Part shown: positions 14,019-48,610 of the stretch, in pieces | Numbering within the stretch: the first letter of the stretch is position 1 | Layout: the number at the start of each line of letters is the position of its first letter | From: an uncultured Bacteroidia bacterium | GTDB taxonomy: Bacteria > Bacteroidota > Bacteroidia > Bacteroidales > UBA932 | Direction: 5' to 3' | Assembly: GCA_902762655.1 (NCBI GenBank) | Contig: CACWOZ010000002.1 | Coordinates: forward strand, 94,743-158,742 | Length of the DNA: 64,000 nucleotides | Translations under genes and position numbers: made by a program | Notes under the pieces: model-generated | The model's input: only the letters and a program-made list of their open reading frames with translations | Database searches by the model: none | What the model was told of the DNA's origin: nothing

Positions 14019-14056
14019 TTTCGTTTTTTCAAATATGAAAATATTTACTATCTTTG
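14019..14056 (+). promoter_or_regulatory. Promoter (-7 TATCTTTG at 14049-14056) with candidate operator tttcgttttTTTCA-AATA-TGAAA
   Basis: The 22-mer 14019-14040 matches 48579-48600 at 21 of 22 positions; its core is identical to the reverse complement of 45312-45325. Confidence 0.65.
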
Positions 14057-14156
14057 CAAGGATGACTAATTGACGAATGACCAAATAACTTTGATTTTTG
14101 CCCAATGAGTCTTTCGAATTATAAATCTATGATTTATTTTTCTAAATTGCCGTCAA

Positions 14157-15110
14157 ATGAAACGAAGAGATTTTCTTAAAGTGGCCGGCGGCTCTGTAGC
14201 AGGGCTTGCCTTCGGCGCCTCTCTCCTTAATTCTTGTTCCAAGGGGGGAGGGAACGAGAATGATCCAAAAATACCTGTAGAGAAGCCTACAGGACACTTT
14301 TCTCTTTGGCAGTTGACTTCCGCATCCGATACAATCGGCAACTCTTATGTCCTCAAGACTGCAGGCGGTCATCTTATTCTGATAGACGGCGGTATGGAGA
14401 AAAACGGCGATGCCCAGAAACTTAGAAATTATATCAAAGCTCAGGGCAACAACAAAGTTGACGCATGGTGGTTTTCCCATCCTCACGGCGACCATATCGG
14501 CGCCTTCCTGAACATCGCCGACGATCTTCAGGGCATCACCATTGACACCATCTATTATTCCCGCCTCGCAGATTCCATCACGGAAGGCCGTGCGCTTACC
14601 GACCGTTTTAATAAGAAAGTTGATGAAATGTCCGCAGCAGGCGTGAACGTCGTAAACCTCACGCTTGGCGCCCGCTACGATATGGACGGTATTTTCATCA
14701 AGGTGCTGGGCATAGCAAACCCTGAATTTACCACAGCAAGTGCGGGCACCAGCGTAGTGAATGAGCAGTCCGTCATCGTCCGCTTCGAAGACGATAGCAA
14801 GTCTGTGGTATTCACGGGCGATGCCAGCGAGCAGGCGGGCACCAAGTGCATTACAAAGTATTCCAAATATCTCAATTGCGATTACATGCAGATGGCTCAC
14901 CACGGCCAACGCGGGGTGCGTGAGTCCTTCTACAAGAACATCGACTTCAAGCATTGCCTGTGGCCGACTCCAAAATGGCTTTGGGAGGCCGAGGAGGGCA
15001 ACGCCAACAACTACATGACATGGGCTACCCGTAAATGGATGGACGAGAAGGGGATTCCTGCCGAGAACCACCATGTTGCGTGGCGTGACATCGACTGGCA
15101 CCTGGCCTGA
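14157..15110 (+). CDS. ComEC/Pce-like MBL-fold metallo-hydrolase, predicted Tat lipoprotein
   Basis: MKRRDFLK twin-arginine motif plus LNSC lipobox; LILIDGG, SHPHGDH, FTGD, QMAHHG. Confidence 0.85.
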   Translation: MKRRDFLKVAGGSVAGLAFGASLLNSCSKGGGNENDPKIPVEKPTGHFSLWQLTSASDTIGNSYVLKTAGGHLILIDGGMEKNGDAQKLRNYIKAQGNNKVDAWWFSHPHGDHIGAFLNIADDLQGITIDTIYYSRLADSITEGRALTDRFNKKVDEMSAAGVNVVNLTLGARYDMDGIFIKVLGIANPEFTTASAGTSVVNEQSVIVRFEDDSKSVVFTGDASEQAGTKCITKYSKYLNCDYMQMAHHGQRGVRESFYKNIDFKHCLWPTPKWLWEAEEGNANNYMTWATRKWMDEKGIPAENHHVAWRDIDWHLA

Positions 15111-15176
15111 CCTTATGCCGGACCGTGTCGATTTCCAACTGCATATTAATATAATTCATAATTAACTATCTAACCA

Positions 15177-18116
15177 ATGCGCAAATTGCTCAGATTTACT
15201 GTTGCCTGCATCGTACTGTTGTGTGCTGCCGGCAACCTCAGTGCCCAATCAGGTGCCAAACTGGCAATCCGGGGTGTCGTGGTCGACACACAGGAGCCGC
15301 CGCAGCCTGTAATCGGGGCTACCGTGTACATCAAGGGCACCCAGACAGGTGTGGTCGCCGATGTTGCCGGTTCGTTCTCGATCGATGCAAGGAAGGGAGA
15401 CATCCTTGTGTTCTCCTGCATCGGATACAAGGATGTGGAGTATACGGTCACACGTTCTATCGGAGACCTTTCTATCGCTCTGTCCGACGATGTCAACGTG
15501 CTGGAACAGGCAGTCGTTACCGGTATGACCAGCCAGCAGCGCAAGCACATCGCTTCTGCCGTAGGCGTAATCGACAATACCAAGTTCTCCAACAAGCCGG
15601 TAACACAGATGTCCCAGGCCCTCCAGGGAGGTACTACCGGTATCCTTGTACAGCAAGCTTCCGGAGCCCCCGGTTCTGATAATTCCACTATCAAAATCCG
15701 TGGTATGGCATCTCTTGTAGGTATCAATCCTCTGGTGCTTGTCGATGGATTCGAGTTCGACATGAACAAGCTCGACCCATCGACTGTAGAGTCTGTTACC
15801 ATCCTGAAGGATGCTGCGGCTGCTTCCATCTACGGAGCAAAGGCAGGAGGTGGCGTAATCCTCATCACCACCCGTCGCGGTGTTGCAGGTGCAGTCAAGG
15901 TGAATTATAACGGATATGCAGGCGTTCAGACACCTCTTTATATTCCCGAAATGGCAGATTCCTGGGAGTATATGCAGTATGTGAATCAGGTCAACTTGAA
16001 CACCGGAAGTGCTCCAACATATTCCGACGACGAAATCGCCTCGGCACGTGCTCAGGATGATCCCATCAGTTATCCCAACACAAAGTGGGCGGACCTCCTC
16101 CTTACAAAGACGGCCCCCATTACTGAGCACAATGTGTCGGTTTCCGGTGGTAACTCCATCGGACGTTTCGCACTCTCGGCCCAGTATCTGAAACAGGACG
16201 GTATCTACAAGTTGCAGAAAGACAGTTTCGACCGCTTCACCGTACGCGCGAATACCTCCGTCAATCTCACCGACAATATCCTTGTCTTTGTCGACACTTT
16301 TGTCGGACGCGATACCCAGGTGACCCCCAACAGCAACATCTACAGCATGATTTATTCAATGCCTTCCAACATTGTTGCGAAATATCCCCGCAAAGAAGGT
16401 TTCGACACCGATTATTACGGCTATTACATCGCATCCTACATGAATGCGTATGCCCAGGCGGAGCGTGGCCAGGTTGATACACACATCAGGGACTACGTCA
16501 CCATCAACGCCCGTCCCCAGTGGAATATAATGCCGGGACTTACTCTTAAAGGCCAGGTGGGTTATCGTCTTTCCACCGGTATGGACAAGACTAACCGCGA
16601 TCCGTATGTATTCTTCAATTACTTCACCGGTGACGAGGTCGTCTCTTTCTCTATGGTGAAGGGAGCGACCTACACCACACGTGCGAATTACTGGTCTGCA
16701 AGCGCCAACCTCGACTGGGTGAAGGAGATAGGCGGGCACCGTATCAATCTCCTCGGCGGATGGCAGTCTGAGCTCAACGCTACTTCGGGCTGGGACAGGA
16801 TCTCGCTCGTTTCCTGGTACGGCAAGGCCTACTACTCCTATAAAGACAAGTATCTGTTTGAGACTGGCATCCGTGCTGACGGTTCTTCCCTGTTTACAGG
16901 CAAGTATAAGTGGGGTTACTTCCCTTCTGTCGCCGCCGGATGGAACATCAATAAGGAGGAATTCCTGAAGGATGTCCGCTGGATGAGCAGCTGGAAAGCC
17001 CGTGTATCCTTCGGTATGCTTGGCAACAATAACGTGAGCCCTTACTCCTATCAGTCCCTTATCAATTCATCGGGTACCGAAACCAAGAACGGCAATCCCG
17101 ACCTCAAGTGGGAAACCGTGAAGATTTTCGATGCCGGCATGGATCTGAGCCTTTTCGACTATACGCTCGACATCAATCTCGACTATTATCACAAGATTAC
17201 CGACGACCTTATCATGAGTCTGCCGTCCACACTCAGCTCCGGTTTGCTTAACACTCCGGCCAATGTGGGCAAGGCGCAGTCACGGGGTTTCGAAATAGGA
17301 CTCTCATATAATAAGGACTTCAACAAGGACACACACTTGACAATCGGCGGCGGTTTCTCCTACAACCGCAATAAGTGGCTGTACATCCCCGGAGGGGAAT
17401 TCATTACCGGCAATACCATCTGCCGCCAGGGACATGCCATCCGTGCGAATTACTTTTATGTGGCTGACGGTCTGCTCACCCAGCAGGACCTTGACAACTA
17501 CGTAGCAATCGTAGGCGGATATCCGGACAACGGAGTCACTACCCAGCAGGCGGGTGATATCAAATACAAGGATATCAACGGAGACGGTATCATCGATACC
17601 AACGACCGTACCGCTGTCGGCGATCAGGACCCGCACACTATGTTCTACGGCAACCTGACCTTCCGCTGGCGTAACTTCGACTTCGATACCCAGCTCACCG
17701 GACAAGGAAACTCCAACGGTTTCTATTACGGTCAGTTCATCCAGCCTCTCAACAGTACCAATAATGGTGCTGTACAGCGCTGGCAGCTTGATTATTGGAC
17801 ACCGGAGAATCCGAATGCCAGCCGTCCGAGGCCTACGACCGCTGGTACTTCCAACGAATATCTCTCTACCTATTGGATGTTCAACCGTGCATTCCTTCGC
17901 GTGAAATACATCCAGCTTGGTTACAGTTTCCCAAAACTCGCCTCGCACATAAAGGCCTCCAACCTCCGCATTTATGCCAATGTGCAGAATGCGCTGACTT
18001 TCGCTTACCTGACGGAATCCGATCCTGAGACCTGTGCCTCCAACAATGGCGGTGCGGTAACCAGCAAGTACCCTCTCATGCGTACCTGGACCGTAGGCGT
18101 GAACTTAAGTTTCTAA
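15177..18116 (+). CDS. susC: SusC/RagA TonB-dependent transporter
   Basis: NPLVLVDG, SVTILKDAAAASIYGAKAGGGVILITT, RADGSS, LKWET, FLRVKYIQLGY, terminal Phe. Confidence 0.95.
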   Translation: MRKLLRFTVACIVLLCAAGNLSAQSGAKLAIRGVVVDTQEPPQPVIGATVYIKGTQTGVVADVAGSFSIDARKGDILVFSCIGYKDVEYTVTRSIGDLSIALSDDVNVLEQAVVTGMTSQQRKHIASAVGVIDNTKFSNKPVTQMSQALQGGTTGILVQQASGAPGSDNSTIKIRGMASLVGINPLVLVDGFEFDMNKLDPSTVESVTILKDAAAASIYGAKAGGGVILITTRRGVAGAVKVNYNGYAGVQTPLYIPEMADSWEYMQYVNQVNLNTGSAPTYSDDEIASARAQDDPISYPNTKWADLLLTKTAPITEHNVSVSGGNSIGRFALSAQYLKQDGIYKLQKDSFDRFTVRANTSVNLTDNILVFVDTFVGRDTQVTPNSNIYSMIYSMPSNIVAKYPRKEGFDTDYYGYYIASYMNAYAQAERGQVDTHIRDYVTINARPQWNIMPGLTLKGQVGYRLSTGMDKTNRDPYVFFNYFTGDEVVSFSMVKGATYTTRANYWSASANLDWVKEIGGHRINLLGGWQSELNATSGWDRISLVSWYGKAYYSYKDKYLFETGIRADGSSLFTGKYKWGYFPSVAAGWNINKEEFLKDVRWMSSWKARVSFGMLGNNNVSPYSYQSLINSSGTETKNGNPDLKWETVKIFDAGMDLSLFDYTLDINLDYYHKITDDLIMSLPSTLSSGLLNTPANVGKAQSRGFEIGLSYNKDFNKDTHLTIGGGFSYNRNKWLYIPGGEFITGNTICRQGHAIRANYFYVADGLLTQQDLDNYVAIVGGYPDNGVTTQQAGDIKYKDINGDGIIDTNDRTAVGDQDPHTMFYGNLTFRWRNFDFDTQLTGQGNSNGFYYGQFIQPLNSTNNGAVQRWQLDYWTPENPNASRPRPTTAGTSNEYLSTYWMFNRAFLRVKYIQLGYSFPKLASHIKASNLRIYANVQNALTFAYLTESDPETCASNNGGAVTSKYPLMRTWTVGVNLSF

Positions 18117-18128
18117 ATTTGTACAGCG

Positions 18129-19814
18129 ATGAAAAAATATATGAATACAATTCTCCGTATGGCTGCCGTTGCGGCCGCAGCGCTGTCATTCGCATCTTGC
18201 GAGGGTTTCCTTACCAGAGATGCCGAGAATCAGACTACAGAGGAAGCATGGTGGTATAACAAGACCATCCTGAGTACCGTGGTGACGCAGTGCTATGCTC
18301 CGATGCCCGGTGGAACGCTTACTTCCGGAGCTATCGACGCATCTCTTTCCGACAACGGCTACCTGTATTACAATTGCAAAGTAGAGAACGAGGGCCTGAG
18401 CGACAACGGTGTCACTGTGGCCAACTACATCAATAACACCGCCATCACTTATGGTACGGCGCAGAGCACCCATGCTCACCCGACCAATGTGTGGACTCAG
18501 CGTTACAGGACTATCCGCCGCTGCAGCCGTTATCTTGAGAACTGGCACCGTGCGGTCATCTACCCCGATACCAACCCTTGGGAAGGTATACAGACGGTAG
18601 ACCGTTGGGAAGCGGAGATCAGGGCCCTGCGCGCATACTATCATCTGGAACTTTTCATGAACTTCGGACCTGTTCCCATCGTGGACCATGTTATCACGGT
18701 GGCTGAACAGGAGCTTTCGCGTCCTACCCAGGAAGAAATGGTGAAGTTTATCGCGGACGAGTTCGAACTCGCCAGCCAGAATCTGCCTGTGAACCCTCAG
18801 GTTGCCGAAGAACGCTGGCGTTGGACAAAAGGCGCCTGCTATGCATACCTTTCTTACCTTTATATGTTCGTCGGCGACTGGGCCAATGCCAAGAAATGGG
18901 CGGAAGAAGTAATCAAGTTGGGCAAGTACGACATCTATGAGAGCCCTTCGGACCCTGCCCACAGTTATGCTGAGCAGTTCCAGTACGATGCTTATACCAA
19001 TAATACCAAGGAATCCATCCTTACGAAGAACAGGGGATTGAGCCAGAGTGCCAACCGTCTTGCTCCTCCGAGTGTAAAGAACGGTACTTCCGGCGTCTCT
19101 CCTGCTGCATCTCTTATAGATGAATATGAACTTAAGGACGGCCGCACACTTGATGAACTCAGTGAGTCTGAAAGGCTCAAATATCATCTTAATCCTACTC
19201 CAGGGGACCGCGATCCCCGCCTGGCGATGACTATTGTATTCCCTGGTGAAAGTACTATGGGATACACATGGAATCCCTGGGTAAGCGGAAATACCGACTA
19301 TATCGGTTCCCGCAATTCCACGGCCACGGGATATTGGGTGAAGAAGTTCCTCTCTCCCAGTGATTTCACGCTTTCCAACACAACGGGCGGCACGAATCAC
19401 TTCATGCTGATGCGCTATTCTGTCGTGCTCTTGAATTATGTAGAGGCGGCGATCGAGCTGAACCAACTCAGCGACCCCAATATCTATGCATATCTTAACA
19501 AGATACGCCATCGTGCCGGCATGCCCGATGTGGATCAGGACAAGTACAATACTCAGGAGAAACTCCGGGAACTTGTACGCCGCGAACGCCGCGTCGAACT
19601 GGCATTTGAAGGCCACCGCATCATCGATATCCGCCGCTGGCATATTGCCGAACAGGTGATGAACGGACCGGTATACGGTGCCAAGTTGCCGGATGAGGAT
19701 GCACTTTACTTCGTGGAGGAACGCCGCTTCAACCCCGATAGGGATTATGTGTGGCCCATCCCCAATACCGAAGTGCAGAGTAACGACAATATTGAACAGA
19801 ATCCCGGTTATTAA
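18129..19814 (+). CDS. susD: RagB/SusD family lipoprotein
   Basis: Lipobox FASC; EIRALRAYYHLEL, DRDPRL, MRYSVVLLNYVEA, ERRVELAFEGHRIIDIRRW, IEQNPGY. Confidence 0.95.
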   Translation: MKKYMNTILRMAAVAAAALSFASCEGFLTRDAENQTTEEAWWYNKTILSTVVTQCYAPMPGGTLTSGAIDASLSDNGYLYYNCKVENEGLSDNGVTVANYINNTAITYGTAQSTHAHPTNVWTQRYRTIRRCSRYLENWHRAVIYPDTNPWEGIQTVDRWEAEIRALRAYYHLELFMNFGPVPIVDHVITVAEQELSRPTQEEMVKFIADEFELASQNLPVNPQVAEERWRWTKGACYAYLSYLYMFVGDWANAKKWAEEVIKLGKYDIYESPSDPAHSYAEQFQYDAYTNNTKESILTKNRGLSQSANRLAPPSVKNGTSGVSPAASLIDEYELKDGRTLDELSESERLKYHLNPTPGDRDPRLAMTIVFPGESTMGYTWNPWVSGNTDYIGSRNSTATGYWVKKFLSPSDFTLSNTTGGTNHFMLMRYSVVLLNYVEAAIELNQLSDPNIYAYLNKIRHRAGMPDVDQDKYNTQEKLRELVRRERRVELAFEGHRIIDIRRWHIAEQVMNGPVYGAKLPDEDALYFVEERRFNPDRDYVWPIPNTEVQSNDNIEQNPGY

Positions 19815-19826
19815 TTCGAACGCCCT

Positions 19827-21794
19827 ATGAAAGTATATAGATTCTTACCTTTTATTCTGGCAGCATTCCTGGGAGGATGCTATGTGCTGGACGTCCCGGA
19901 TCCCGAGACACCTGAATCTGTCGTCAGGCTTTCTCTTGACGATGATCCCTATGCCATGAAGGATCCTATCGGAATCGATTATGAGACTTCGCAGACCCTG
20001 ACGTTCACATATGATGATATCTCCCGTATCGTTGCGACTGCCCCTCAGGGCTGGACCGTGCTGGTGAAGATGTCCGGCGGAAACGGCACCCTTAAGATTT
20101 CCGCGCCCAAATATGGCGAAGAGTCGGTGCCGTCCGGCGATGTCGTACTCAAACTGTATGACGGAACAGGATCGTTTACAGAGAAGAAGTTTCCCGTTTA
20201 TGCGATAGAGGGCGCATTGGTGTTCGCTATCCAGGATTTTGACTTTTCTGCTGTTAGCGAGTTCACCCTTGGCAGCCGCACGACTGTGAAGTTCGATTGC
20301 TCACCCAGTTTCAAGAATATCGAATTCGACCTGCCTGCCGGTTGGAAGGCAATCGAAAAGACTCGCGGAACATTCACCATCATCGCTCCCGACCTTACAG
20401 TCGAGACCGGTGACGCAGAAGGGACCGTTACTGTCACCCCTGTTTCATGGACTGGCCAGAAGGGCACCGAACTCGCCAAAAGTTTTGCCGTGCATGTAGA
20501 TGCTACCAAACCTACATTCCAGTTCGTGGAGGAAGAGACTTCCTTTACCTACGGAGAAACCAAAGAGTTGGAGATCACCGCAAAGGGACTTAAAGACCTT
20601 GTTACTCCCGAGGCTCCCGCCGGCTGGACCATAGACTGGAGCGGAGTCCTCGATGGTACGGTCAAGGTGACTGCCCCTGCCAAGGATGCCGATGGATTCG
20701 TCGGAGTGGATACCCTTGTTCTCAATGCGGTTTCCAATACTGATAATTCTACTATCACAAGCAATTCCAGTATAATCCGCCTATACGGTATCAACAGTGC
20801 GAAGGAACTCCTCGATTTCCGTGCTGTTTACGAAGCGGAAGATATGAATGAGCCGAATACCGACGAGACCGCCCTTGCGAAGTGGCTTGTGGACGGTGCG
20901 CTCACCCTTAATTCCGACATCACCCTTACTACGGATATGCTCACCAACAAGGCATTCGTAATCAAGACCTTGAACGTCCCTCTGGAAGGCAACGGTCATA
21001 CTGTCACTCTCGACCTTGAATGCAATGCTACTGTGGCTGGAATTTTCCAGTATATCACCACCGAGGTGCGTAACCTCAAGTTGGCAGGTTCTGTCAAGAA
21101 CAGTTACTCCGGCGGTGTCAGTTATACTTCTACTCTGGTAAGCGTTCCCATGACCTGTACTATCGAGAATGTGGAGTGCGCTGCAGATGTTACTTATGAT
21201 GTAGGTCCTTCCACACTTGTCAAGTCTATCGTCGGTGGTATCGGTGGCTATCCCCGCGCCAACTACGCTCCTACTTTCAAAAACTGCAAATATACAGGAA
21301 CCATTACCTGCAACAATGATGCATTCTCCGTAGGTGGAATCGTAGGCTGCTCCGATGTCGGCAAACCCGGAGCCTTGACAACGGTCGAGGGATGTACTTT
21401 TGCCGGAGAGATAATCCTGAATCATCCGAATGCCGATGGAGGAATTACCAGCCGTGTCGGCGGTATGCTGGGTGACCTTGCCCGTCAGGCGGCTATCCTT
21501 GACTGCGTGAGTGAAGGCACAATAACCATCAATGCCAATGGTAAACGCTATGCATCTTCAAGCGGTTTCGGTTTCGGTGGCCTTGTCGGTCGAATTACAG
21601 CTCCTGCGTCTGGTTACACGATGTCAGCGACCATCAAGAATGCCAGGTTTACCGGTACCATCAAGATCAACGGTGCCGCCGGGAACGAAGACAAGACCCG
21701 CTATGGCCAGATTCTGGGCTGCAGCCCCAACGACAATGCAACCAACATCCTGATCAAGGAAAACTGGATTGAAGAAGGAACTCTAAGCCTCTAA
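19827..21794 (+). CDS. Modular surface lipoprotein: three PxGW...AP stalk repeats plus GLUG-like Gly-rich beta-helix region
   Basis: Lipobox LGGC; repeats APQGW, LPAGW, APAGW; RLYGINS module; C-terminal GGxxG repeats. Paralogous to the next genes. Confidence 0.7.
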   Translation: MKVYRFLPFILAAFLGGCYVLDVPDPETPESVVRLSLDDDPYAMKDPIGIDYETSQTLTFTYDDISRIVATAPQGWTVLVKMSGGNGTLKISAPKYGEESVPSGDVVLKLYDGTGSFTEKKFPVYAIEGALVFAIQDFDFSAVSEFTLGSRTTVKFDCSPSFKNIEFDLPAGWKAIEKTRGTFTIIAPDLTVETGDAEGTVTVTPVSWTGQKGTELAKSFAVHVDATKPTFQFVEEETSFTYGETKELEITAKGLKDLVTPEAPAGWTIDWSGVLDGTVKVTAPAKDADGFVGVDTLVLNAVSNTDNSTITSNSSIIRLYGINSAKELLDFRAVYEAEDMNEPNTDETALAKWLVDGALTLNSDITLTTDMLTNKAFVIKTLNVPLEGNGHTVTLDLECNATVAGIFQYITTEVRNLKLAGSVKNSYSGGVSYTSTLVSVPMTCTIENVECAADVTYDVGPSTLVKSIVGGIGGYPRANYAPTFKNCKYTGTITCNNDAFSVGGIVGCSDVGKPGALTTVEGCTFAGEIILNHPNADGGITSRVGGMLGDLARQAAILDCVSEGTITINANGKRYASSSGFGFGGLVGRITAPASGYTMSATIKNARFTGTIKINGAAGNEDKTRYGQILGCSPNDNATNILIKENWIEEGTLSL

Positions 21795-25129: not shown

Positions 25130-25141
25130 AACAAAGAGATT

Positions 25142-26029: not shown

Positions 26030-26031
26030 AC

Positions 26032-28773: not shown

Positions 28774-28786
28774 CAACATTATACTT

Positions 28787-28942
28787 ATGACAAAACAAAA
28801 CAAATTGGGCTATTCAAGTCCTGAATGCCGGGAGGTAAGCATCTCCCCGCAGGCACAGTTGCTCCAGGTCATCAGCAATCCTGCTGTTACCTTGGATGCG
28901 TTCGGTATTTATGATGACACAACAGATCCTTATTTCGGTTGA
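28787..28942 (+). CDS. Small protein (51 aa) MTKQNKLGYSSPECREVSISPQAQLLQVISNPAVTLDAFGIYDDTTDPYFG, absent from the ORF track
   Basis: Fills the intergenic gap, has an AT-rich leader, and ends 3 nt before the next ATG; YxxP...LL...S pattern. Confidence 0.65.
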   Translation: MTKQNKLGYSSPECREVSISPQAQLLQVISNPAVTLDAFGIYDDTTDPYFG

Positions 28943-28945
28943 TTT

Positions 28946-34605: not shown

Positions 34606-34635
34606 AGGGGTGCGGCTTTTGCTGCACCTCTTTTT
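34606..34635 (+). terminator. Rho-independent terminator after the rpn remnant
   Basis: 11-bp stem aggggtgcggc / gctgcacctct (two GU pairs), tttt loop, T run. Confidence 0.7.
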
Positions 34636-34661
34636 CACTTGCGAAAGCGGAACAAAATTCT

Positions 34662-34687
34662 TAAATTTGAAAGTATTTATACTTTCA
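34662..34687 (+). promoter_or_regulatory. Promoter (-7 TAAATTTG) overlapped by perfect palindrome TGAAAGTAT-TT-ATACTTTCA
   Basis: 9-bp arms at 34668-34676 and 34679-34687, 3 nt before the GH3 ATG. Confidence 0.6.
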
Positions 34688-34690
34688 TTT

Positions 34691-40529: not shown

Positions 40530-40530
40530 T

Positions 40531-41457
40531 ATGGACAGAAGGAATTTCTTGAAGACTATGGGAGCCGCTACGGCTGCGGCTGCCGTCAGCGAGGTTGGCT
40601 TGCAGGCAAACACTGCTGATAAAGACAAAAAGAAGGCCGCAAAAAAGGAGAGCGGGCTCCGTGTGCGTTTCCTGGGCACCGGTGCCGCCGATTGGAAGGG
40701 GCCGGACGACCGCGGGGAGCATCGCCGCCTTTCCAGCGTATTGCTGGACAATCGCATCCTCATTGATTTCACACCTACGGATGCGGATATGCTTCCGGAA
40801 GGCTGCAAGCCCGAGTGCATCTTCTATACCCACTCCCACGGCGACCATTATAATCCCGAGGCTCTATTGAAACTCGGCGTTCCCGTAGCCCATCTTGGCA
40901 AGACATGGATCAGCCGTGCCTGGAAGAATTTTACCGATGCATCTGCAAAAACCGGTTTGCCAGTCCCCGAACTCATTCCGCTGTCGATAGGGGAGACCAT
41001 CGTGAGCGGAGATATACGCATAACCGCTCTTCCTGCCAATCATGCCATAAACGATACCGAACAGGCCCTCATCTATTTGATAGAAAAGGGACCCACGCGT
41101 GTTATCTATGCTACTGATACCGGAGGAATTATGGGCGTTGCGGCACGTATAGTAGGAATCGATCCCCATGTCAAACCCGGCAATCCCATCCACGGCCTTA
41201 TCATGGAGGCAACGATGGGTATGGGAGCGAAAGGGGATGAGGATTTCCGTATCTTTACCCATTCCAGCGTGAATACCGTGTATCACACGGCCAAGATGCT
41301 TCTCAAGCGCGGACGGCTTGTAATGAAGGAAGGCCAAAGTGTCTATCTTACCCACATGGCGCGTACCCTTCAACCTACCCAGGCCGAACTTGACGCTACG
41401 CTCCCCGCTCCACTTAAGGCTGCCTATGACGGTCTGGAAGTAGTGTTTGAGGCATAA
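40531..41457 (+). CDS. Tat-exported MBL-fold hydrolase, PhnP-like phosphodiesterase candidate
   Basis: MDRRNFLK twin-arginine motif; FLGTGAA, THSHGDH, PANH, YATDT, THM. Confidence 0.75.
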   Translation: MDRRNFLKTMGAATAAAAVSEVGLQANTADKDKKKAAKKESGLRVRFLGTGAADWKGPDDRGEHRRLSSVLLDNRILIDFTPTDADMLPEGCKPECIFYTHSHGDHYNPEALLKLGVPVAHLGKTWISRAWKNFTDASAKTGLPVPELIPLSIGETIVSGDIRITALPANHAINDTEQALIYLIEKGPTRVIYATDTGGIMGVAARIVGIDPHVKPGNPIHGLIMEATMGMGAKGDEDFRIFTHSSVNTVYHTAKMLLKRGRLVMKEGQSVYLTHMARTLQPTQAELDATLPAPLKAAYDGLEVVFEA

Positions 41458-43500
41458 ATGAAGAGGACTGTCATCATAGCCTCTTTTTTCGCATGTCTCT
41501 TTGGGGCGTGCTGCCCGTCCGTAGATTTCTCGGTATATACTGTTCCGGAAAGCGACAGCCTGGAGACCTCTTGTGACGCGGTAAGGAATGGAGACGTTTG
41601 GGAGATAGAAGTAAGAGTCTGCAATAACACTGCCGAAACTCAGTCATTCAAACTTGCCCTTGCCGCCGAGCCTGGTTTCAAGGCAGATTCCTGGCTTATC
41701 CCGGGGGTGAACTACGATGGCAATCCTTATGGGGAGAATATGCCCCAGGGATGGGAGAAAGACGGTCAGCCGTGGGTTTTTGCCTACGATCGATCCTCCA
41801 TCCCGTCCTGTACAATCTCGGAGAATGCCTCCCGGGTGTTCGCCCTGTTCGCATCGGATGCTGATACGGCCTCATACGTGAGCGCTTGCTCTATGGAAAA
41901 ACTCTCCGACGGGTCTTTCAGGCACATCATATACTGGCCGGACAGCGAAGGCCCTGTCTGCTATTCCGGGAAGAAAAGTTTCACGGGAAGGTATGATAAT
42001 TTCATTACCCTGCAGTCCGGGGAATCGTTCAAAGTCAAAGCCTTTGCCTGTACCGGCAAGCCGGAATGGAGGAACTACGGTTTTGCGGAAGTCTTTCCTG
42101 TGGCGTGGAAACATCTCCGCCACGATACCCCTTCCAGACGCAGTATGACCGAGGTTGTACGTCTGGACAAGGCTTTCCAGGACTGGAGCCGCCGTCAGGA
42201 TGAACACGGATACTGGTACGGGGGCATAGTAGACGATCAGGTGTTCTGCGCAGGGTATTACGAGAGCGGCAAGTCTTCCGACGGATTCACCGTGGCGGAC
42301 TACGATGCCAATCCTTCCCTCAACCGTTGGGCGACTGATGAGATTGAGCAGTCTAAACATCTTGCTCCAGGAGAATATGTCCATGGGGCTGGACGCAGCA
42401 TAGGTTTCGGAGCGCAGTCTTTCCAGATGGCGCGGCTTTCCATTGAGAACGGCCTTCGGAACGGGGTTCAGGAGGATGTTGATTTCGGGCTTGCCGTTTT
42501 TCGCAGCTGGAACCGGGAGAGACGCTTCGCCAGCGGACTATACAACAGTCATAAACCGCGTGCAGGCTATGTGATAAATGCCTCCAATGTTGGATGGGCC
42601 ATCAGTGAACTATCCCGCACTTCCGCCCTATTGAAAGAATATGGCAGAGAGGAGCAAGCGGAGGAATTCCGGCAGGCGGCATCCTTGACAGTAAAGACAG
42701 TTCTTGACGGTGTGCAGGACGACGGCTGCATTGGTTCGCTGTGGAATGCTGGAAGCGGCGAGGTCGCCGGTCGGGGAGGGGACAGCGCCGGCTATGTCCT
42801 GATGGGCCTGGTGCGCTGGTGGCAGCTGGTTCGGGACGATTCCCTGCTTCCGCTTTTCAAGAACGCATTCGCGTATTATTACAGCAAGGACATTGATTTT
42901 TTCCGCTGCAGTGGGGGAGCCATGGATTGCGTCAGCGTGGACAGGGAGGGAATTCATCCATTCCTCACCACCGCCATGGCTTTGTACCGCGAAACAGGAG
43001 AAAAGGAGTATCTGGAATATGCCCATAAGGCTGCCTGGTATTTCCTGTCCTGGTTATATATCCATAATCCTGTCTATGGTCCGGATACCGATTTCGCAAA
43101 GTATGACTGGAAACCTGCAGGTGCGACAATCGTTGGCGCCGAGCACCCAGCTCTAGATGAATATGCCTGCGTGCTCATACCTGAATTCATAGAGTTGGCA
43201 AGGATAGACGGCAATCCTATGTGGCGGGATGTCGCTGCACTGATCTGGCGCTACTCTACACAAGGCTTTGCTGATGAGCATAATCGCATCTGGCACGGTC
43301 TGGAAAGGCCCGTCGGCTCCAAGAACGAGGCAATCTTTCCCGCCCGCTGGAGCAAGTATCATCTGGCGGACAAGGCCCGCGGAAGCATTAACGACCACCT
43401 GACAGCATGGGGCGGAACTTATCGTCTTGCAGCTCTGCTGGAACTGCAGGACGAAGACCTCCGTTGGCTGGAGAATGCCGTGAGGCCGGCAGAGGAATAA
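41458..43500 (+). CDS. Hypothetical lipoprotein, probable (alpha/alpha)6 glycosidase-like fold
   Basis: Long ORF in the operon with signal and Cys; repeated aromatic helical segments (GWAISEL, GYVLMGL, AAWYFLSW). Family not recognised. Confidence 0.55.
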   Translation: MKRTVIIASFFACLFGACCPSVDFSVYTVPESDSLETSCDAVRNGDVWEIEVRVCNNTAETQSFKLALAAEPGFKADSWLIPGVNYDGNPYGENMPQGWEKDGQPWVFAYDRSSIPSCTISENASRVFALFASDADTASYVSACSMEKLSDGSFRHIIYWPDSEGPVCYSGKKSFTGRYDNFITLQSGESFKVKAFACTGKPEWRNYGFAEVFPVAWKHLRHDTPSRRSMTEVVRLDKAFQDWSRRQDEHGYWYGGIVDDQVFCAGYYESGKSSDGFTVADYDANPSLNRWATDEIEQSKHLAPGEYVHGAGRSIGFGAQSFQMARLSIENGLRNGVQEDVDFGLAVFRSWNRERRFASGLYNSHKPRAGYVINASNVGWAISELSRTSALLKEYGREEQAEEFRQAASLTVKTVLDGVQDDGCIGSLWNAGSGEVAGRGGDSAGYVLMGLVRWWQLVRDDSLLPLFKNAFAYYYSKDIDFFRCSGGAMDCVSVDREGIHPFLTTAMALYRETGEKEYLEYAHKAAWYFLSWLYIHNPVYGPDTDFAKYDWKPAGATIVGAEHPALDEYACVLIPEFIELARIDGNPMWRDVAALIWRYSTQGFADEHNRIWHGLERPVGSKNEAIFPARWSKYHLADKARGSINDHLTAWGGTYRLAALLELQDEDLRWLENAVRPAEE

Positions 43501-43503: not shown

Positions 43504-45309
43504 CTAGTTTATTCCGTATTTCTTAAGTATTTTCAGGACAGGCTTCTTCACCGATTCCATCCAGAGACGGTAGCCGTGGTCGGAGGGGTGGATTCCGTCA
43601 ACGGTCGCGGCATAGTCCGGACTGGTGGCATTGGGATGGATGAAATAAACATCCTTGTACTTCTTGCATGCTTCGGTCATCATTTTTTCGGCCGTGTCTA
43701 TTTTTTCCTGTTCGGATTTCTGATAGCCGGTGTTGTAGTTGCGGCCCTCGCGGTAGATGGTTTGCATGAAGATAAGCGGGACTCCGGGATGTGCTGTCTG
43801 GAACTTCTCGATGAAGGGGAAAAGCCTCTCCTTGATTTCTTTAGGAGTTGGATTGGAGAAAGCATCAAAGATGTATGCCTCGCAGTTTGCCGCAACCATC
43901 ACATCGGCAAAGTAATCCTGCAGGCGGCAGTTGCCTCCGCAGCCGAGGCTTAGCATTTCCAATCCGGTCTCGCGGGCTAACTGGGCAATCCATGTCATGC
44001 CTCCGCGTGATGTGTTGGATCCTTGTGTGTAACTCGATCCGAAAACCCCTATGCGGTGGCGGAAGGGATTCTCAACAGCCGAAATGGTGCAGCCTTCCTT
44101 TATTCCGATTTTCACCGAACGGACTTCGCAATAGGTAGGAAGATAAAGCAAGAACTCTTTGGGGTCGCCCTTCATGTTGCCGACGATTGTAAATGGATCA
44201 GCCTTTTCTGCCTTTTCACAGACGCCTGCACCGGCATATATCCACTTGCCGCCCTCGTGAACATAGAGGTCATATCCCCATGCCGAAATATGACTGGTGC
44301 GTTCCTGGGGTGTTTTCTGGCCGTAAACAGTCATCAGGGAGATGGAAGGGGAGTCGGTGCTGAATGCGACTGCTATGCCCGAAGAACTGCGGACCTGGAA
44401 GTTCTCGCCACGGGTGAAACCATGAAAGCGGGCGGTGTCCACTCTGTGGTAGGGATTTGGCACGTCATGGAATAGTTTCCCTGTAAGAGTGAACTCCGAA
44501 GCTTCATGATAAATGTAGCCTTTTCCAGGTACACCTTTCTTTCTGTCGACATGCTTCTTCAACACCTCGGGATGGTCGGTGCTGACATATGTAATATGGT
44601 GCTGGTCAGCCCACTCGTACAGATCGGGATTGTTGACGATCCACAGCGTGGTCTCAACTCCAAGTTTGTGGCACTTTTCAGCGAGTCCGGGATTGTTGAG
44701 GAAGCCGTCCAGATTATATGAAAGTCCCTTGTAACCCTTGCTTCTGGCCCATTCGGGTGTGGGAACATGCATCCCTCCTGCAATGAACAGCACCTTTGCG
44801 GAAGGATCGATGCGCAGAACTTCGTCGCAGATTGGTTCTTCGAAAGATGTGTAGTCAACCTGTGCCGTCATTCCGCATTTCTGAACAACCTTCATACTCT
44901 CTGCGGTGATGAGCATGTCCAGGTCTCTATTCTCCTGACGCTTGATTTCCATGATCAACTTGAGATCAGGAGTCTTTCGTGCCTGGGCGAACCACTCTTC
45001 GAGAGTAGGCATCTGATGACCTCCCGGAAGGACCACGGCGCGGGCTTCATCAAAGGTCATATTATGGATATTGCGGGACTTGTCACCCGGCATGGAAGGA
45101 CCGTGGAACACCAGTATCTTCTTATCGGAAGTTAACTGGATGTCGAATTCTACGGATTCGATACCTGTGTCTTGTGCAAATCTCAGAGATGCAAGAGTGT
45201 TTTCAAATGGACCTTCGATGCGGCATCCGCGATGACCTGTGATTTTGGGCTGTGCCAGGCAGACGATACTGACGAGTGTCAGAAGAAGAAATGCTGTTAT
45301 CTTTTTCAT
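43504..45309 (-). CDS. Glycerophosphodiester phosphodiesterase (GDPD) fused to GxDLY/SGNH hydrolase
   Basis: N-terminus GHRG, ENTLAS, EFDIQLTSDK, MPTLEE, MEIK; C-terminus GYDLY, FGSSYTQG, DGIHP. Confidence 0.9.
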   Translation of the reverse strand: MKKITAFLLLTLVSIVCLAQPKITGHRGCRIEGPFENTLASLRFAQDTGIESVEFDIQLTSDKKILVFHGPSMPGDKSRNIHNMTFDEARAVVLPGGHQMPTLEEWFAQARKTPDLKLIMEIKRQENRDLDMLITAESMKVVQKCGMTAQVDYTSFEEPICDEVLRIDPSAKVLFIAGGMHVPTPEWARSKGYKGLSYNLDGFLNNPGLAEKCHKLGVETTLWIVNNPDLYEWADQHHITYVSTDHPEVLKKHVDRKKGVPGKGYIYHEASEFTLTGKLFHDVPNPYHRVDTARFHGFTRGENFQVRSSSGIAVAFSTDSPSISLMTVYGQKTPQERTSHISAWGYDLYVHEGGKWIYAGAGVCEKAEKADPFTIVGNMKGDPKEFLLYLPTYCEVRSVKIGIKEGCTISAVENPFRHRIGVFGSSYTQGSNTSRGGMTWIAQLARETGLEMLSLGCGGNCRLQDYFADVMVAANCEAYIFDAFSNPTPKEIKERLFPFIEKFQTAHPGVPLIFMQTIYREGRNYNTGYQKSEQEKIDTAEKMMTEACKKYKDVYFIHPNATSPDYAATVDGIHPSDHGYRLWMESVKKPVLKILKKYGIN

Positions 45310-45337
45310 ATTTTCATATTTGAAACATACAAAGATA
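45308..45337 (-). promoter_or_regulatory. GDPD promoter (-7 TATCTTTG) followed by candidate operator TTTCA-AATA-TGAAA
   Basis: 18 nt (45308-45325, reverse complement) are identical to 14027-14044 and overlap the start codon. Confidence 0.62.
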
Positions 45338-45374: not shown

Positions 45375-48300
45375 ATGATGACACGAATTACGCTTCTTAT
45401 TCTTTTCGCAATACTTTGCATTTCATGTTCCAGCCAGATGCCGGAGGAAGATGACTCCGTTGCCTCCACCCTCAGGGAAGTGTTCAACGAACCACCCCGG
45501 AGCGCAAAGCCCATGGTCTGGTGGCATTGGATGAACGGGAATATCAGCAAGGGAGGGATCCGTAAGGATATAGAATGGATGCATCGCATCGGCATAGGTG
45601 GTTTCCATGTCTTCGACGCGAATTTCGACACGCCTAAGATAGTGGAAAAGCGCCTTCCCTATATGTCGGAGGATTGGAAGGATGCATTCCGATCGGCTAT
45701 ACGCCTGGCAGATTCTCTGGGCTTCGACGTTGGAATCGCCAGTTCTCCCGGCTTCAGCCATACAGGAGGCCCCTGGGTGCGGCCGGAGGATGCCATGAAA
45801 AAACTTGTCTGGAGGGAGATGCCGTTGGCGGGAGGGAAGCATTTCCATGGAAGGCTGCCTGAACCATTCAGCGTTAGCGGAAGATTTCAGGATATCGCGC
45901 TTTCAAAGCAAGGTGTTACGTCTGATAGGACGGAAGAATGCTATTATGAAGATATAGCGGTAGTGGCCGTTGAACTTACCGATGCTGCCCGTACTTTGGA
46001 AGACCTTGGGGCATCGGTCAGCAGCAGCGGAGGGGATTCTTTTACCGTAAGTCAGCTCACGAATGACCGATTTGCAGATTATGGACGCCTGGATGCCAGC
46101 CCGGATGGGTTTGCGTGGATTCAGTATTCATTCCCCGGGCCACGGACTTTCCGCGCCTTGACTGTTGTAAACCCCAATCCACGATCACGTGGGCATGCTG
46201 TTGCCGAGTACTGCGAAGACTCCCTTCAGGTAAGCGACGACGGGGTGGACTTCCGCACGGTATTCGGCATTCCCGTAGGCAGTTGCGAGGCACAGACCAT
46301 TTCATTCGAGCCGCTTACGGCCAAGTATCTCAGGCTCAAGCACAGGAATCCCAAAGCCTATTTTCATTATTCCATGTTGAAACCGGACCCGGATCCGGAG
46401 TTCTCACTTGTGCCGCAATTCCGGCTTTATACCGAAAACAGGATCAATCATGCCGAAGAGAAAGCCGCCTTCGCAGCCTCCCATGACCTGCACGATTATC
46501 CTACGCCGGACAACCATGAAGGAATTGGAACCGGGAAAGTCGTGATTCTCACGGATGCAGTTCATGATGGAGTCCTTGACTGGGATGTCCCCGAAGGCAG
46601 GTGGGTAGTCTATCGTTTCGGTGCATCCCTGACAGGGAAAAAGAATCATCCGGCATCTCCGGAGGCAACCGGGCTGGAGGTCGACAAGCTTGATCCGGAG
46701 GCCATGGGGGCATATCTGCGTCATTATCTCGACATGTACAAGGATGCCTCCGGTGGTATGCTCGGGGCGCATGGAATAAGGCATCTGATGGTGGACAGTT
46801 ATGAGTCCGGGGCGCAGAACTGGACTCCCCGGCTGATGGGGGAATTCATGAAACGCCGCGGATATGATATGACTCCATGGATGCCTGTGCTCGCCGGAGT
46901 GATTGTCGGGGATGCGGAAAAGTCTGAGGCCTTTCTCAAGGACTTCCGCGTTACCATTGCCGAACTCTTCTCCGAGAACTTCGCCAGAATTACGGACATT
47001 GTGCGTGGCGGATACGGAATGGAAGGCTGCTTTATGGAATCTCACGAGAACGGGCGCGTTTTTGTTATGGACGGGATGTCGGTCAAGAAAACAGCCCTAT
47101 ATCCCATGTCTGCCTGCTGGGTACCCGGCAAAGTAGGTGCGAAGGATCGTGTCTTCGAGGGTATGGCCGACATCCGCGAGTCGGCGTCCGTTGCACATAT
47201 CTATGGGCAGAACCTTGTTGCAGCAGAGAGTCTGACATCCATTGGCCTGGCCGGCCAGGCATATAGTTATTGCCCGGAGAATCTTAAACATACCGCCGAT
47301 CTTGAACTCTCCTGCGGAGTCAACCGCTTCGTGATTCACGACAGCGCACACCAGCCCTGCGACGACAAGTTCCCGGGCCTCGGCCTGGGTGTTTACGGGC
47401 AATGGTTCAACAGGCACGAATGCTGGGCGGAGCAGGCAGGAGCGTGGATTGGTTATCTGGCTCGCAGCTGTGCGATGTTGCAGCAGGGACGGGACGTGGC
47501 GGATATCCTCTGGCTTTATGGTGAAGATACAAATATCACAGCGCATTATTCCCATGGCGAGCCGCCTGTTCCGGCGGGTTTCCATTATGACTTTATCAAT
47601 CCGGAAGCCTTCCTCGACAAGATAATGCTGAAAGGGAAAACGCTCGTGGCAGAATCCGGCGCTTCTTACCGTATTCTCTGTCTGGATGAAAGTGCCTCCA
47701 TGCTCCCGGAAGATGCAATAGATAAGATAGCGGCAATCCGAAAAGCGGGTATTCCGGTTGTTACACCTGGAGCCGGACTGGAAAAGGCCTGCAGGCATCT
47801 GAACAAGGATTTTGCCGCATCGGATTCTCTGGTCTATGTGCACAGGACTATGCCCGGGGCCGATATTTACTGGATAAGCAACCCTTCGTCCGCATCGGTA
47901 AAATGCGAGGCATCTTTCCGCACACGAGGCCGCGCGGCTGAAATCTGGAATGCCGAGTCCGGAGAAATGAAAAATGTTTCTTTCCGTTTTTCCCGTGGCA
48001 GGACAGTGGTGCCTGTTGAACTTGCTCCGGACGATGCCATTTTTGTCGTATTTGCGAAGCCTGCAGGAAAAGGAAAGAAACTGACGGCCCCGGAGTTCTT
48101 GGAAAGCGTTCCTGTGGACGGCCCCTGGACCCTTTCCTTCCAAGCAGGGCGCGGTGCTCCGGACAGCATTGTCATGGATGAACTTGAGCCCTTGAATGAG
48201 AATGAGTCGGAAGGTATTCGTTATTTCAGCGGTACGGTAACCTACAAAACGCATTTCCGGGCAGATACTTCGACAAGAACTGTCCTGTCCCTCGGGAAGG

Positions 48301-48578
48301 TCTGCAATATCGCAGAAGTAATTGTCAATGGCAAAGCCGTGGCAACTTTGTGGAGGCCTCCTTTCTGTGTGGATGTGAGTTCGTTTGTGGAGCCCGGAGA
48401 CAACGAACTTGAACTCAAGGTTACTAATCTGTGGGTAAACCGCCTCATCGGGGATGCCAGGGAAGGCCTCGCCCCGCTGACATATACTCCCGTGAAATTC
48501 TACAAGGCAGATGACCCTCTTCTGCCATCTGGACTGATGGGCCCTGTCGAGTTGCGGATTGAGAGTTTTTGTTTTTGA
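45375..48578 (+). CDS. GH106 alpha-L-rhamnosidase-like glycosidase
   Basis: PMVWWHWMNGNIS, GPWVRPEDAMKKL, GLEVDKL, VDSYE, ESASVAHIYG, VAAESLT, GVNRFVIH, C-terminal GH2-like sugar-binding domain. Confidence 0.92.
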   Translation: MMTRITLLILFAILCISCSSQMPEEDDSVASTLREVFNEPPRSAKPMVWWHWMNGNISKGGIRKDIEWMHRIGIGGFHVFDANFDTPKIVEKRLPYMSEDWKDAFRSAIRLADSLGFDVGIASSPGFSHTGGPWVRPEDAMKKLVWREMPLAGGKHFHGRLPEPFSVSGRFQDIALSKQGVTSDRTEECYYEDIAVVAVELTDAARTLEDLGASVSSSGGDSFTVSQLTNDRFADYGRLDASPDGFAWIQYSFPGPRTFRALTVVNPNPRSRGHAVAEYCEDSLQVSDDGVDFRTVFGIPVGSCEAQTISFEPLTAKYLRLKHRNPKAYFHYSMLKPDPDPEFSLVPQFRLYTENRINHAEEKAAFAASHDLHDYPTPDNHEGIGTGKVVILTDAVHDGVLDWDVPEGRWVVYRFGASLTGKKNHPASPEATGLEVDKLDPEAMGAYLRHYLDMYKDASGGMLGAHGIRHLMVDSYESGAQNWTPRLMGEFMKRRGYDMTPWMPVLAGVIVGDAEKSEAFLKDFRVTIAELFSENFARITDIVRGGYGMEGCFMESHENGRVFVMDGMSVKKTALYPMSACWVPGKVGAKDRVFEGMADIRESASVAHIYGQNLVAAESLTSIGLAGQAYSYCPENLKHTADLELSCGVNRFVIHDSAHQPCDDKFPGLGLGVYGQWFNRHECWAEQAGAWIGYLARSCAMLQQGRDVADILWLYGEDTNITAHYSHGEPPVPAGFHYDFINPEAFLDKIMLKGKTLVAESGASYRILCLDESASMLPEDAIDKIAAIRKAGIPVVTPGAGLEKACRHLNKDFAASDSLVYVHRTMPGADIYWISNPSSASVKCEASFRTRGRAAEIWNAESGEMKNVSFRFSRGRTVVPVELAPDDAIFVVFAKPAGKGKKLTAPEFLESVPVDGPWTLSFQAGRGAPDSIVMDELEPLNENESEGIRYFSGTVTYKTHFRADTSTRTVLSLGKVCNIAEVIVNGKAVATLWRPPFCVDVSSFVEPGDNELELKVTNLWVNRLIGDAREGLAPLTYTPVKFYKADDPLLPSGLMGPVELRIESFCF

Positions 48579-48610
48579 TTTCGTTTTTTCAAAAATGAAA
48601 ACTATATTTG
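48579..48610 (+). promoter_or_regulatory. Promoter (-7 TATATTTG at 48603-48610) with candidate operator tttcgttttTTTCA-AAAA-TGAAA
   Basis: 21 of 22 nt match 14019-14040. Confidence 0.65.

Follow-up and report, generated by a model that had tools for sequence, protein, structure and literature searches.

The 64,000-nucleotide stretch of DNA analysed here (positions 94,743 to 158,742 of contig CACWOZ010000002.1, assembly GCA_902762655.1; hereafter the window) comes from uncultured Bacteroidales of rumen and gut metagenomes. It carries an adjacent SusC/SusD pair, one criterion for a polysaccharide utilization locus (PUL), together with an operon of glycoside hydrolase (GH) genes, the gene of a secreted glycerophosphodiester phosphodiesterase (GDPD), a gpsA-like gene for a glycerol-3-phosphate dehydrogenase-like (G3PDH-like) protein paired with a major facilitator superfamily (MFS) transporter gene, and the gene of a DeoR/GlpR-family regulator. 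A short palindrome, TTTCA-N4-TGAAA, is repeated within this region: there are four exact copies in the window, all of them intergenic. We consider it probable (about 0.8) that this repeat serves as operator for the AgaR-like repressor of the DeoR family whose gene lies in the window. The sites head four to five neighbouring operons, which would share this operator.

Three of the sites (O1, O2 and O3) had been noticed in an earlier reading of the sequence alone, which located them correctly: O1 and O2 are identical at 21 of 22 positions and have -7 boxes downstream, while the third site (45308-45325; reverse complement TTTCAAATATGAAAATAT) lies between the minus-strand TAtcTTTG box and the ATG of the GDPD gene (45309-45307). 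The same reading counted three promoters and in this fell short, since a fourth exact site (O4) is present. O4 and its imperfect partner, the tripartite layout of O3 and the five-half-site array of O1 are all additions to that description. The tripartite pattern TTTCR-N3-TTTCA-N4-TGAAA has exactly three matches in the window (O1, O2 and O3), all on the plus strand, with 0.02 expected; O3, read on this strand, is TTTCA-tat-TTTCA-tatt-TGAAA and has the layout of O1 and O2. Successive half-sites of the O1 array are spaced by 11, 11, 8 and 9, and the two palindromes of O4 stand 50 bp apart, centre to centre, flanking a TAaaTTTG box. Taken as a pattern in the sequence only, a site consists of 2-5 TTTCR units overlapping the core promoter or the 5' untranslated region (UTR). 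The features are collected in Table 1.

Table 1. Putative operator sites, -7 boxes and genes of the window, and copies of the 22-mer in related loci (MBL, metallo-beta-lactamase; TAT, twin-arginine translocation; OPA, organophosphate:Pi antiporter)
Feature	Position	Strand	Description
O1, operator array	13997-14040	+	Five half-sites: CGAAA 13997, TTTCA 14008, TTTCG 14019, TTTCA 14027, TGAAA 14036
O1, tripartite 22-mer	14019-14040	+	TTTCGTTTTTTCAAATATGAAA; before MBL-SusC-SusD locus
-7 box	14049-14056	+	TAtcTTTG, Bacteroidetes type; 8 nt after O1
Putative target operon 1	14157-32062	+	MBL lipoprotein, SusC, SusD, GLUG-motif protein, two uncharacterised proteins, 913-aa MBL protein, Mfa-like 1038-aa protein
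MBL1	14157-15110	+	First gene of SusCD operon; TAT signal, phosphodiesterase-like lipoprotein
SusC	15177-18116	+	Plug, barrel and CarbopepD_reg domains
SusD	18129-19814	+	Adjacent to and paired with SusC
O4, upstream palindrome	34633-34646	+	TTTCActtgCGAAA, one mismatch; 15 nt before -7 box
-7 box	34662-34669	+	TAaaTTTG; GH3 operon, 13 nt upstream of O4 (34683)
O4, exact palindrome	34683-34696	+	TTTCAtttaTGAAA; overlaps probable GH3 start ATG 34691
Putative target operon 2	34691-43500	+	GH3, GH78 rhamnosidase, WbsX-like protein, TAT-signal MBL protein, uncharacterised 680-aa protein
Putative target gene 3	43504-45309	-	Secreted GDPD-GxDLY-SGNH fusion; glycerophosphodiester phosphodiesterase and esterase
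O3, tripartite operator	45304-45325	+	TTTCATATTTTCATATTTGAAA = TTTCAtatTTTCAtattTGAAA; inside 65-bp divergent GDPD/GH106 region
-7 box	45330-45337	-	TAtcTTTG; GDPD gene
GH106 alpha-L-rhamnosidase	45375-48578	+	Divergent from GDPD; weak -7 box TAaaTTTa upstream
O2, tripartite operator	48579-48600	+	TTTCGTTTTTTCAAAAATGAAA = TTTCGtttTTTCAaaaaTGAAA; 2 nt 5' of -7 box, gpsA-like/MFS operon
-7 box	48603-48610	+	TAtaTTTG; gpsA-like/MFS operon
Putative target operon 4, gene 1	48633-49685	+	Divergent NAD(P)-G3P-dehydrogenase-like protein
Putative target operon 4, gene 2	49686-51056	+	OPA-family MFS transporter, GlpT/UhpC/PgtP-like
DeoR/GlpR-family regulator	51062-51826	-	254 aa; convergent with MFS gene, 3 bp downstream of pnuC
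pnuC	51830-52438		PnuC-type nicotinamide riboside/nicotinamide mononucleotide transporter
22-mer of L094			TTTCGtttTTTCAaaaaTGAAAgcTAtaTTTG; DeoR 93% identical; extra gene between promoter and gpsA
22-mer of L013			TTTCAtttTTTCAtataTGAAA...TAtaTTTG; DeoR 65% identical; before gpsA-like operon
22-mer of L128/L138			TTTCAtttTTTCAcataTGAAAatatttacTAtaTTTG; DeoR 67-68% identical; before gpsA-like operon
22-mer of L144			TTTCGattTTTCAaaaaTGAAA...TAtaTTTG; DeoR 64% identical; before gpsA-like operon

The exact palindrome of O4 was hidden within a long open reading frame (ORF) called for the GH3 gene from position 34598. The first 31 codons of this ORF cross a hairpin at 34606-34631 (-21.7 kcal/mol, z = -7.2) that is followed by a T run. 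A start at 34598 was ruled out by the read-through of this strong terminator hairpin that it would require, and by the signal peptide encoded from 34691. The true start is probably the ATG at 34691, opening the signal peptide MKRFSTLFLAVAALMLPVSA, and the hairpin probably ends the upstream PD-(D/E)XK gene. With the start at 34691 rather than 34598, O4 would lie in the leader of the GH3 operon.

Shuffling of the whole window gives an expectation of 0.13 exact copies of TTTCA-N4-TGAAA, compared with the four observed. For the intergenic DNA of the window (1887 bp, 65-80% A+T), order-1 and order-2 Markov models give 0.02-0.03, and none of 3000 simulations reached four copies. The sequence-only reading had asked whether the motif is common in unrelated AT-rich intergenic DNA; it proved to be rare there, with five matches in 123 kb of real intergenic DNA from 80 other Bacteroidota loci, i.e. 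0.077 expected versus 4 (Poisson P = 1.4e-6). Eleven other intergenic regions of the window, including the rpsA, relA-side and sigma/anti-sigma promoters, lack the motif.

Promoters of the Bacteroidetes carry a -7 box (TAnnTTTG), with the transcription start site (TSS) about 5 nt after the G of the box, and the positions given here were computed from this assumed geometry. Relative to the predicted TSS, the O1 22-mer spans approximately -42 to -21 (its palindrome -34 to -21) and the O2 22-mer -36 to -15, while O3 occupies approximately +1 to +22 of the GDPD unit, ATG included, and the two O4 palindromes lie at about -41 to -28 and +10 to +23. Each site touches or overlaps either a -7 box or the 5' UTR together with the start codon. 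The distance between site and -7 box varies (2, 8, -4 and -13 nt), which fits an operator and not a promoter element. By their predicted positions the sites are of the repressor and not the activator type: they span the -33 to -7 region (O1, O2) or the TSS, 5' UTR and start codon (O3, O4), so that a bound repressor would block RNA polymerase. Inside operon 1, a search of the gaps between genes identified no further -7 box. Three bovine metatranscriptomes contained 6-7% of the words of the window, with a few short unstranded contigs over the GDPD, GH106, gpsA-like and MFS genes, which are too few and too short, and lack the strand information, to be informative on transcription starts or induction.

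The regulator contains HTH_DeoR (PF08220, 53 bits) and DeoRC (PF00455, 152 bits) domains, both scoring above their cut-offs, which assigns it to the DeoR/GlpR family; its C-terminal domain matches the structure of E. coli DeoR (7l6l). Its best NCBIfam match is AgaR (NF040755), at 210.8 bits below the equivalog cut-off of 260, followed by SrlR and haloarchaeal GlpR, while the E. coli-type GlpR model (NF008154) scores only 111.5 bits against a cut-off of 331. The protein is 33% identical to AgaR of E. coli K-12 (E = 4e-41), and the recognition helices of the two proteins have TIR(K/N)D in common. Because only 3 bp separate them, pnuC and deoR probably form one operon. This pairing was seen only in close relatives (L010, L094); elsewhere the DeoR gene stands beside gpsA-like, MFS, GDPD or glycerol-1-phosphate dehydrogenase-like (G1PDH-like) genes.

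The sequence-only reading had proposed the regulator at 51062 as the protein that binds the element, and comparison with related loci speaks for this assignment. In two loci of the same species encoding an identical DeoR protein (L004, L005), O2 and O3 are unchanged although their flanks differ. The GH106 ORF is called there to 3 bp before gpsA, and the O2 22-mer is intact within differing flanks; in a further locus of this species (L008) other ORFs replace the GH106 region, and a scaffold gap covers the place of O2. The 22-mer is also kept upstream of gpsA-like genes in three or more other lineages (L013, L128/L138 and L144, with DeoR proteins 64-68% identical), as well as in the closer relative L094, and L023 has a near-copy (TTTCAcattTTTCAaaaaTGAAA) 80 bp upstream of its DeoR orthologue. 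An exact palindrome near DeoR homologues was found in only two of 80 genomes (L013 and L023). What seems to be conserved generally is the array of half-sites, and in closer relatives the 22-mer; upstream of distant orthologues, and of the genes next to them, there are arrays of the same 5-mers in other arrangements, often with a period of 10-11 bp (e.g. TTTCAaattaTTTCAaatctTTTCA in L024/L028). Upstream of the gpsA-like genes of L157 and L169 (DeoR 62-63% identical), at a distance of about 60 bp, the 22-mer is replaced by GTTTC-N15-GAAAC (gtttctaaatagaaaaatagaaac), which may be a diverged operator.

Quantitatively, the density of TTTCA/TGAAA is 1.90 per 100 bp in DeoR-adjacent intergenic DNA versus 0.60 in other intergenic DNA of the same loci (3.2-fold), and among dereplicated AT-rich upstream regions of gpsA-like genes a palindrome or a cluster of at least three half-sites is present in 11 of 16 with a DeoR orthologue versus 2 of 19 without one (Fisher P = 5e-4), both comparisons being uncorrected for shared ancestry. 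The companions of the DeoR orthogroup across lineages are G3PDH-like or G1PDH-like dehydrogenases, GDPD and GlpT-like MFS transporters. In several loci with no gpsA-like neighbour (L018-L021, L024, L028, L030-L034) the DeoR orthologue stands beside a gene for a 445-453-aa protein, often with GDPD and GlpT-like MFS genes nearby. Three copies of this gene (L020, L024, L030) were checked: they are Fe-ADH_2 proteins, for which the top-scoring NCBIfam model is NAD(P)-dependent glycerol-1-phosphate dehydrogenase, at 142-187 bits and thus below the cut-off. This hints at glycerol-1-phosphate (G1P)-based and glycerol-3-phosphate (G3P)-based versions of the same regulon.

The proposed link between the SusCD locus and the GDPD and gpsA-MFS units through a common operator, also made in the sequence-only reading, gains support from two contigs of a relative (L093, L174), in which the first MBL protein is 84-85% and the DeoR protein 72-73% identical to those of the window. 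Here the DeoR gene is divergent from, and directly upstream of, the orthologous MBL-SusC-SusD genes, and the shared intergenic region contains TTTCA/TGAAA half-sites just 5' of a TAtaTTTG box. L090 and L091 (MBL 76% identical) have a layout like that of the window, with TTTCAttTGAAAaataaTGAAA upstream of the MBL gene. In L015, a different SusCD locus adjoins a 56%-identical DeoR gene, with eight half-sites in the control region. In more distant MBL-SusCD orthologues (L092, L175-L177) the motif is absent and regulators of other kinds (IclR, AraC) stand nearby, for which reasons the predicted DeoR control of the MBL-SusCD locus is clade-limited.

That the motif is missing from these four orthologues is one of several points that weigh against DeoR-family repression through the element. 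No site was found in the regulator's own promoter, i.e. that of pnuC-deoR. Conservation in orthologues, which the sequence-only reading had set as a test, holds for the gpsA-like promoters of L013, L094, L128/L138 and L144, but fails for those of L012, L096, L157, L162 and L169, which are DeoR-linked and have an absent or degenerate palindrome; below about 60% identity, DeoR orthologues show differently arranged half-sites. The enrichment figures may carry an effect of shared ancestry, as mentioned above, TTTCA/TGAAA as a word is rich in A and T, and the ATGAAA of a start region forms part of two sites. Moreover, since the scan covered 64 kb of the genome, the regulon may be larger, and even global. 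The limited scan, the site-free promoter from which deoR is probably co-transcribed with pnuC, and the DeoR-linked promoters without the motif would also suit a different transcription factor, e.g. one for global control of carbon or phosphate whose gene lies elsewhere in the genome, the proximity of the DeoR gene being coincidental. We regard this as unlikely: the motif tracks the DeoR orthologue through convergent, divergent, tandem and SusCD-adjacent arrangements, its half-site is that of the AgaR/TagR subgroup, to which the regulator is nearest, and the housekeeping promoters and the sigma/anti-sigma SusCD locus of the window have no site.

Explanations that dispense with a repressor fare worse. 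The base composition of the intergenic DNA (65-80% A+T), the ATGAAA start codon context included in O4 and the overlap of the outer O3 half-site with the GDPD start codon could suggest that the repeats arose by chance, or reflect a generic -33/UP-like or start-codon context; this is largely refuted and very improbable, as only 0.02-0.08 copies are expected even in AT-rich intergenic DNA, the -7 box stands at varying distances, strong promoters such as that of rpsA are among the 11 motif-free regions, and the motif is kept across lineages whose flanks have diverged. We give hardly any credence to control of translation or stability by a small 5' UTR hairpin: the palindromes of O3 and O4 do lie in predicted 5' UTRs and overlap the start region, but the folding energy predicted for the palindromes is -1 to -2 kcal/mol, no better than that of shuffled sequence, O1 reaches -5 kcal/mol only through pairing of the outer half-sites, O1 and O2 lie upstream of the -7 box and so outside the predicted transcript, and an Rfam scan of the whole window returned no family at threshold. 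Recognition by the extracytoplasmic function (ECF) sigma factor encoded at 13367-13951, directly upstream of O1, comes to mind because its gene ends 68 bp before that site; it is just as remote, given that the sigma gene partners a divergent FecR-SusC(STN) locus in the usual layout of trans-envelope signalling, that the element is a symmetric multi-copy array of half-sites beside canonical housekeeping -7 boxes, and that in other organisms it co-occurs with DeoR and not with a sigma factor.

The genes behind the sites were annotated by Pfam and NCBIfam searches of the window proteins. No GH was recognised among the genes of the SusCD operon; the GH3, GH78 and GH106 genes follow 2.6-13 kb downstream of it, behind the same motif, with mobile-element-like genes in between. 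GH106 is a possible further target of O3. The AlphaFold model of MBL1 (pLDDT 89) is nearest in fold to the beta-lactamase-like nuclease domain of ComEC (9ic4) and next to Pce, the pneumococcal teichoic-acid phosphorylcholine esterase (2bib, 1wra; TM-scores 0.61-0.65). Sequence searches of the PDB with MBL1, the 680-aa protein and a 1111-aa protein returned no match. The G3PDH-like protein scores 102 bits against an NCBIfam cut-off of 257 (closest structure 1txg), and the MFS transporter 255 bits to the glpT model against a cut-off of 633; with both under their equivalog cut-offs, the substrates are not fixed by these scores.

The region between the SusCD and GH3 operons is occupied by a mobile-looking insert, in which a 148-nt segment occurs twice with 86% identity (32726-32873 and 33587-33734), directly upstream of an ORF6N-domain gene (32902-33540) and of a PD-(D/E)XK 'transposase-like' gene (33906-34598), respectively. 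Direct repeats of about 50 bp (CCATCCACCGAACC...CCCTTCCCGTGTCTGC; 32138-32752) are present in at least five copies that are 63-100% identical. Most of a 184-aa ORF (32090-32644) is taken up by this array; the ORF matches no family and is possibly not a gene. Periodic repeats of 12 nt lie within the 3' end of the PD-(D/E)XK gene (GAACAAGGCATG-like; 34383-34478). On the minus strand at 2353-13951 lies a second SusCD locus, encoding a calcineurin-like phosphoesterase (Metallophos), an endonuclease/exonuclease/phosphatase (EEP) protein, a Fib_succ_major protein, a SusC with an STN domain and FecR, with a divergent ECF sigma gene; it is Pus-like, rich in phosphoesterases, and, under its own sigma/anti-sigma control, has no DeoR-type site. 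Beyond it (24-2366), a gene truncated by the window start encodes a fusion between a histidine-phosphatase (branch 2) domain and the C-terminal portion of a GH106-like rhamnosidase. Another MBL gene (54359-55264) is RNase Z-like, and in the contig annotations its product also matches the anti-Pycsar Apyc1 family (PF23023).

Operators of DeoR/GlpR proteins are made up of repeated half-sites, several to an operator, that lie close to or across the promoter and are occupied by dimers up to octamers. The effectors of the family are known to be phosphorylated intermediates, sugars or polyols, of the pathway under control. In the mechanism that we propose, each helix-turn-helix of an oligomeric repressor would read one TTTCR half-site, the core unit being the inverted pair TTTCA-N4-TGAAA, which in O1, O2 and O3 would be extended by the third, direct-repeat TTTCR located 8 bp upstream. 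The additional half-sites (O1) or the second palindrome 50 bp away (O4) might provide for cooperative or looped binding. The bound repressor would stop RNA polymerase at the promoters of the MBL-SusC-SusD, GH3-GH78, GDPD (possibly also GH106) and G3PDH-like/GlpT-like units. Given the conserved companions of the regulator (G3PDH-like or G1PDH-like dehydrogenase, GDPD and GlpT-like transporter), the most economical candidate for the inducer is a glycerol phosphate, and we infer that it is such a compound or an organophosphate close to it. The secreted phosphodiesterases would free the inducer and the GlpT-like transporter would take it up, so that the regulon would be on while phosphodiester-linked, rhamnose-containing glycans are being degraded.

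The putatively regulated set, by annotation, comprises three MBL proteins and GDPD, the rhamnosidases GH78 and GH106, GH3, SusCD, and the uptake and oxidation of glycerol phosphate. We suggest, quite tentatively and as a possibility that is itself rather doubtful, that the four to five operons with this operator form one DeoR-controlled system for harvesting rhamnose-rich Gram-positive wall polymers that bear glycerol phosphate (teichoic-acid-like polymers or rhamnopolysaccharides decorated with glycerol phosphate), with the released glycerol phosphate as inducer. The Pce/ComEC-like MBL phosphodiesterases and GDPD would remove phosphodiester-linked units, SusCD would import the fragments, and the rhamnosidases and GH3 would break the backbone. 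The glycerol phosphate set free would be both a gain of carbon and phosphorus and the inducer sensed by the repressor, and related lineages may use a G1P instead of a G3P dehydrogenase, depending on the stereochemistry of their polymer.

Among the closest known systems is that of AgaR of E. coli, a repressor of the same protein family whose control regions are rich in direct and inverted TTTCR half-sites. Of the 74 TTTCR/YGAAA 5-mers in a 10-kb stretch of the E. coli genome (NC_000913.3), 21 fall in the agaR-kbaZ and agaA-agaS regions (e.g. cTTTCGtaaaacTTTCGTTTCATTTCG and TGAAATGAAACGAAAggcaagTGAAAg). Together with the NCBIfam match of the regulator, this bears out the likeness to AgaR sites to which the sequence-only reading had pointed, so the element belongs to an operator type already known. 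However, AgaR, reported to be tetrameric (PMC10991401), governs the catabolism of amino sugars (N-acetylgalactosamine and galactosamine) taken up by a phosphotransferase system, whereas the putative targets in the window are SusCD, glycosidase, GDPD, G3PDH-like and GlpT-like genes; aga/kba amino-sugar and tagatose-bisphosphate genes are absent from both the window and the orthologous loci. The sites of the window also differ in being a defined tripartite 22-mer, and belong to another phylum with a -7/-33 type of promoter. TagR, a tagatose-responsive DeoR-family repressor of E. coli Nissle 1917, has predicted operators (tagO1/tagO2, CTTTCAAAATGAAAG-like) that overlap the TSS (PMC12226905). They contain the same TTTCA...TGAAA inverted repeat, although with a spacer of 3 instead of 4, and TagR, whose effector is a tagatose-derived signal, is predicted to act at one divergent promoter pair rather than at four to five dispersed operons.

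In gene content the putative regulon resembles that of E. coli GlpR, a DeoR-family repressor of dispersed operons that serve the hydrolysis of glycerophosphodiesters (glpQ) and the uptake (glpT) and oxidation of G3P; its inducer is G3P and its half-site is of the TGTTCGAT type. The GDPD, OPA-family MFS and G3PDH-like genes of the window are putative functional analogues and form the conserved core here, but the GlpR half-site differs from TTTCR, and the putative regulon of the window adds outer-membrane SusCD and glycosidases. There is also a likeness to the PusCD systems of Flavobacterium, SusCD-like complexes co-localised with phosphodiesterases or phosphomonoesterases and inner-membrane organophosphate transporters (PMC8115612). 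The window has this combination: its SusCD pair is accompanied by GDPD, an OPA-family MFS transporter and MBL genes of phosphodiesterase-like type. There are two loci of the kind in all, rich in MBL, Metallophos, EEP, GDPD and histidine-phosphatase genes. Pus loci, however, respond to phosphate depletion and are devoid of carbohydrate-active enzymes, whereas the window has GH78, GH106 and GH3 and a cytoplasmic repressor of the substrate-sensing type.

Descriptions of SusCD loci in Bacteroidota usually place them under hybrid two-component systems, SusR-like proteins or ECF sigma/anti-sigma pairs. Some PULs have cytoplasmic one-component regulators, and the likeness of the window to these is a local cytoplasmic repressor that would sense a breakdown product. 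The sequence-only reading knew of no account of a SusCD locus under DeoR control, and for experimental work this roughly stands: we found in the literature no experimental description of such control, no defined DeoR operator before a SusCD operon, none joining a SusCD locus to three to four other operons, and nothing specific on a Bacteroides GlpR/DeoR motif or on a teichoic-acid PUL. However, published maps of rus-type loci show DeoR-like genes (bioRxiv 10.1101/574913), and DeoR/GlpR regulators have been computationally associated with a laminarin PUL of Maribacter (PMC12961874). A local DeoR/AgaR-type repressor with TTTCR operators is of an already known kind; what is new is the content of the predicted regulon, which would join a SusCD locus of uncultured Bacteroidales to three to four further operons, and the defined 22-mer.

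The 22-mer is directly usable for finding regulons in metagenome-assembled genomes. The common operator would mark which genes belong together, including several large proteins without known family, and the operator set points to an unusual class of substrate, phosphodiester-linked glycans, in an uncultured rumen and gut lineage. If the harvesting of wall polymers proves true, this would be the first 'teichoic-acid/phosphoglycan PUL' with a cytoplasmic organophosphate sensor. A concrete cis-element and a candidate cytoplasmic DeoR-type repressor would together join outer-membrane uptake, glycosidases and glycerol-phosphate catabolism.

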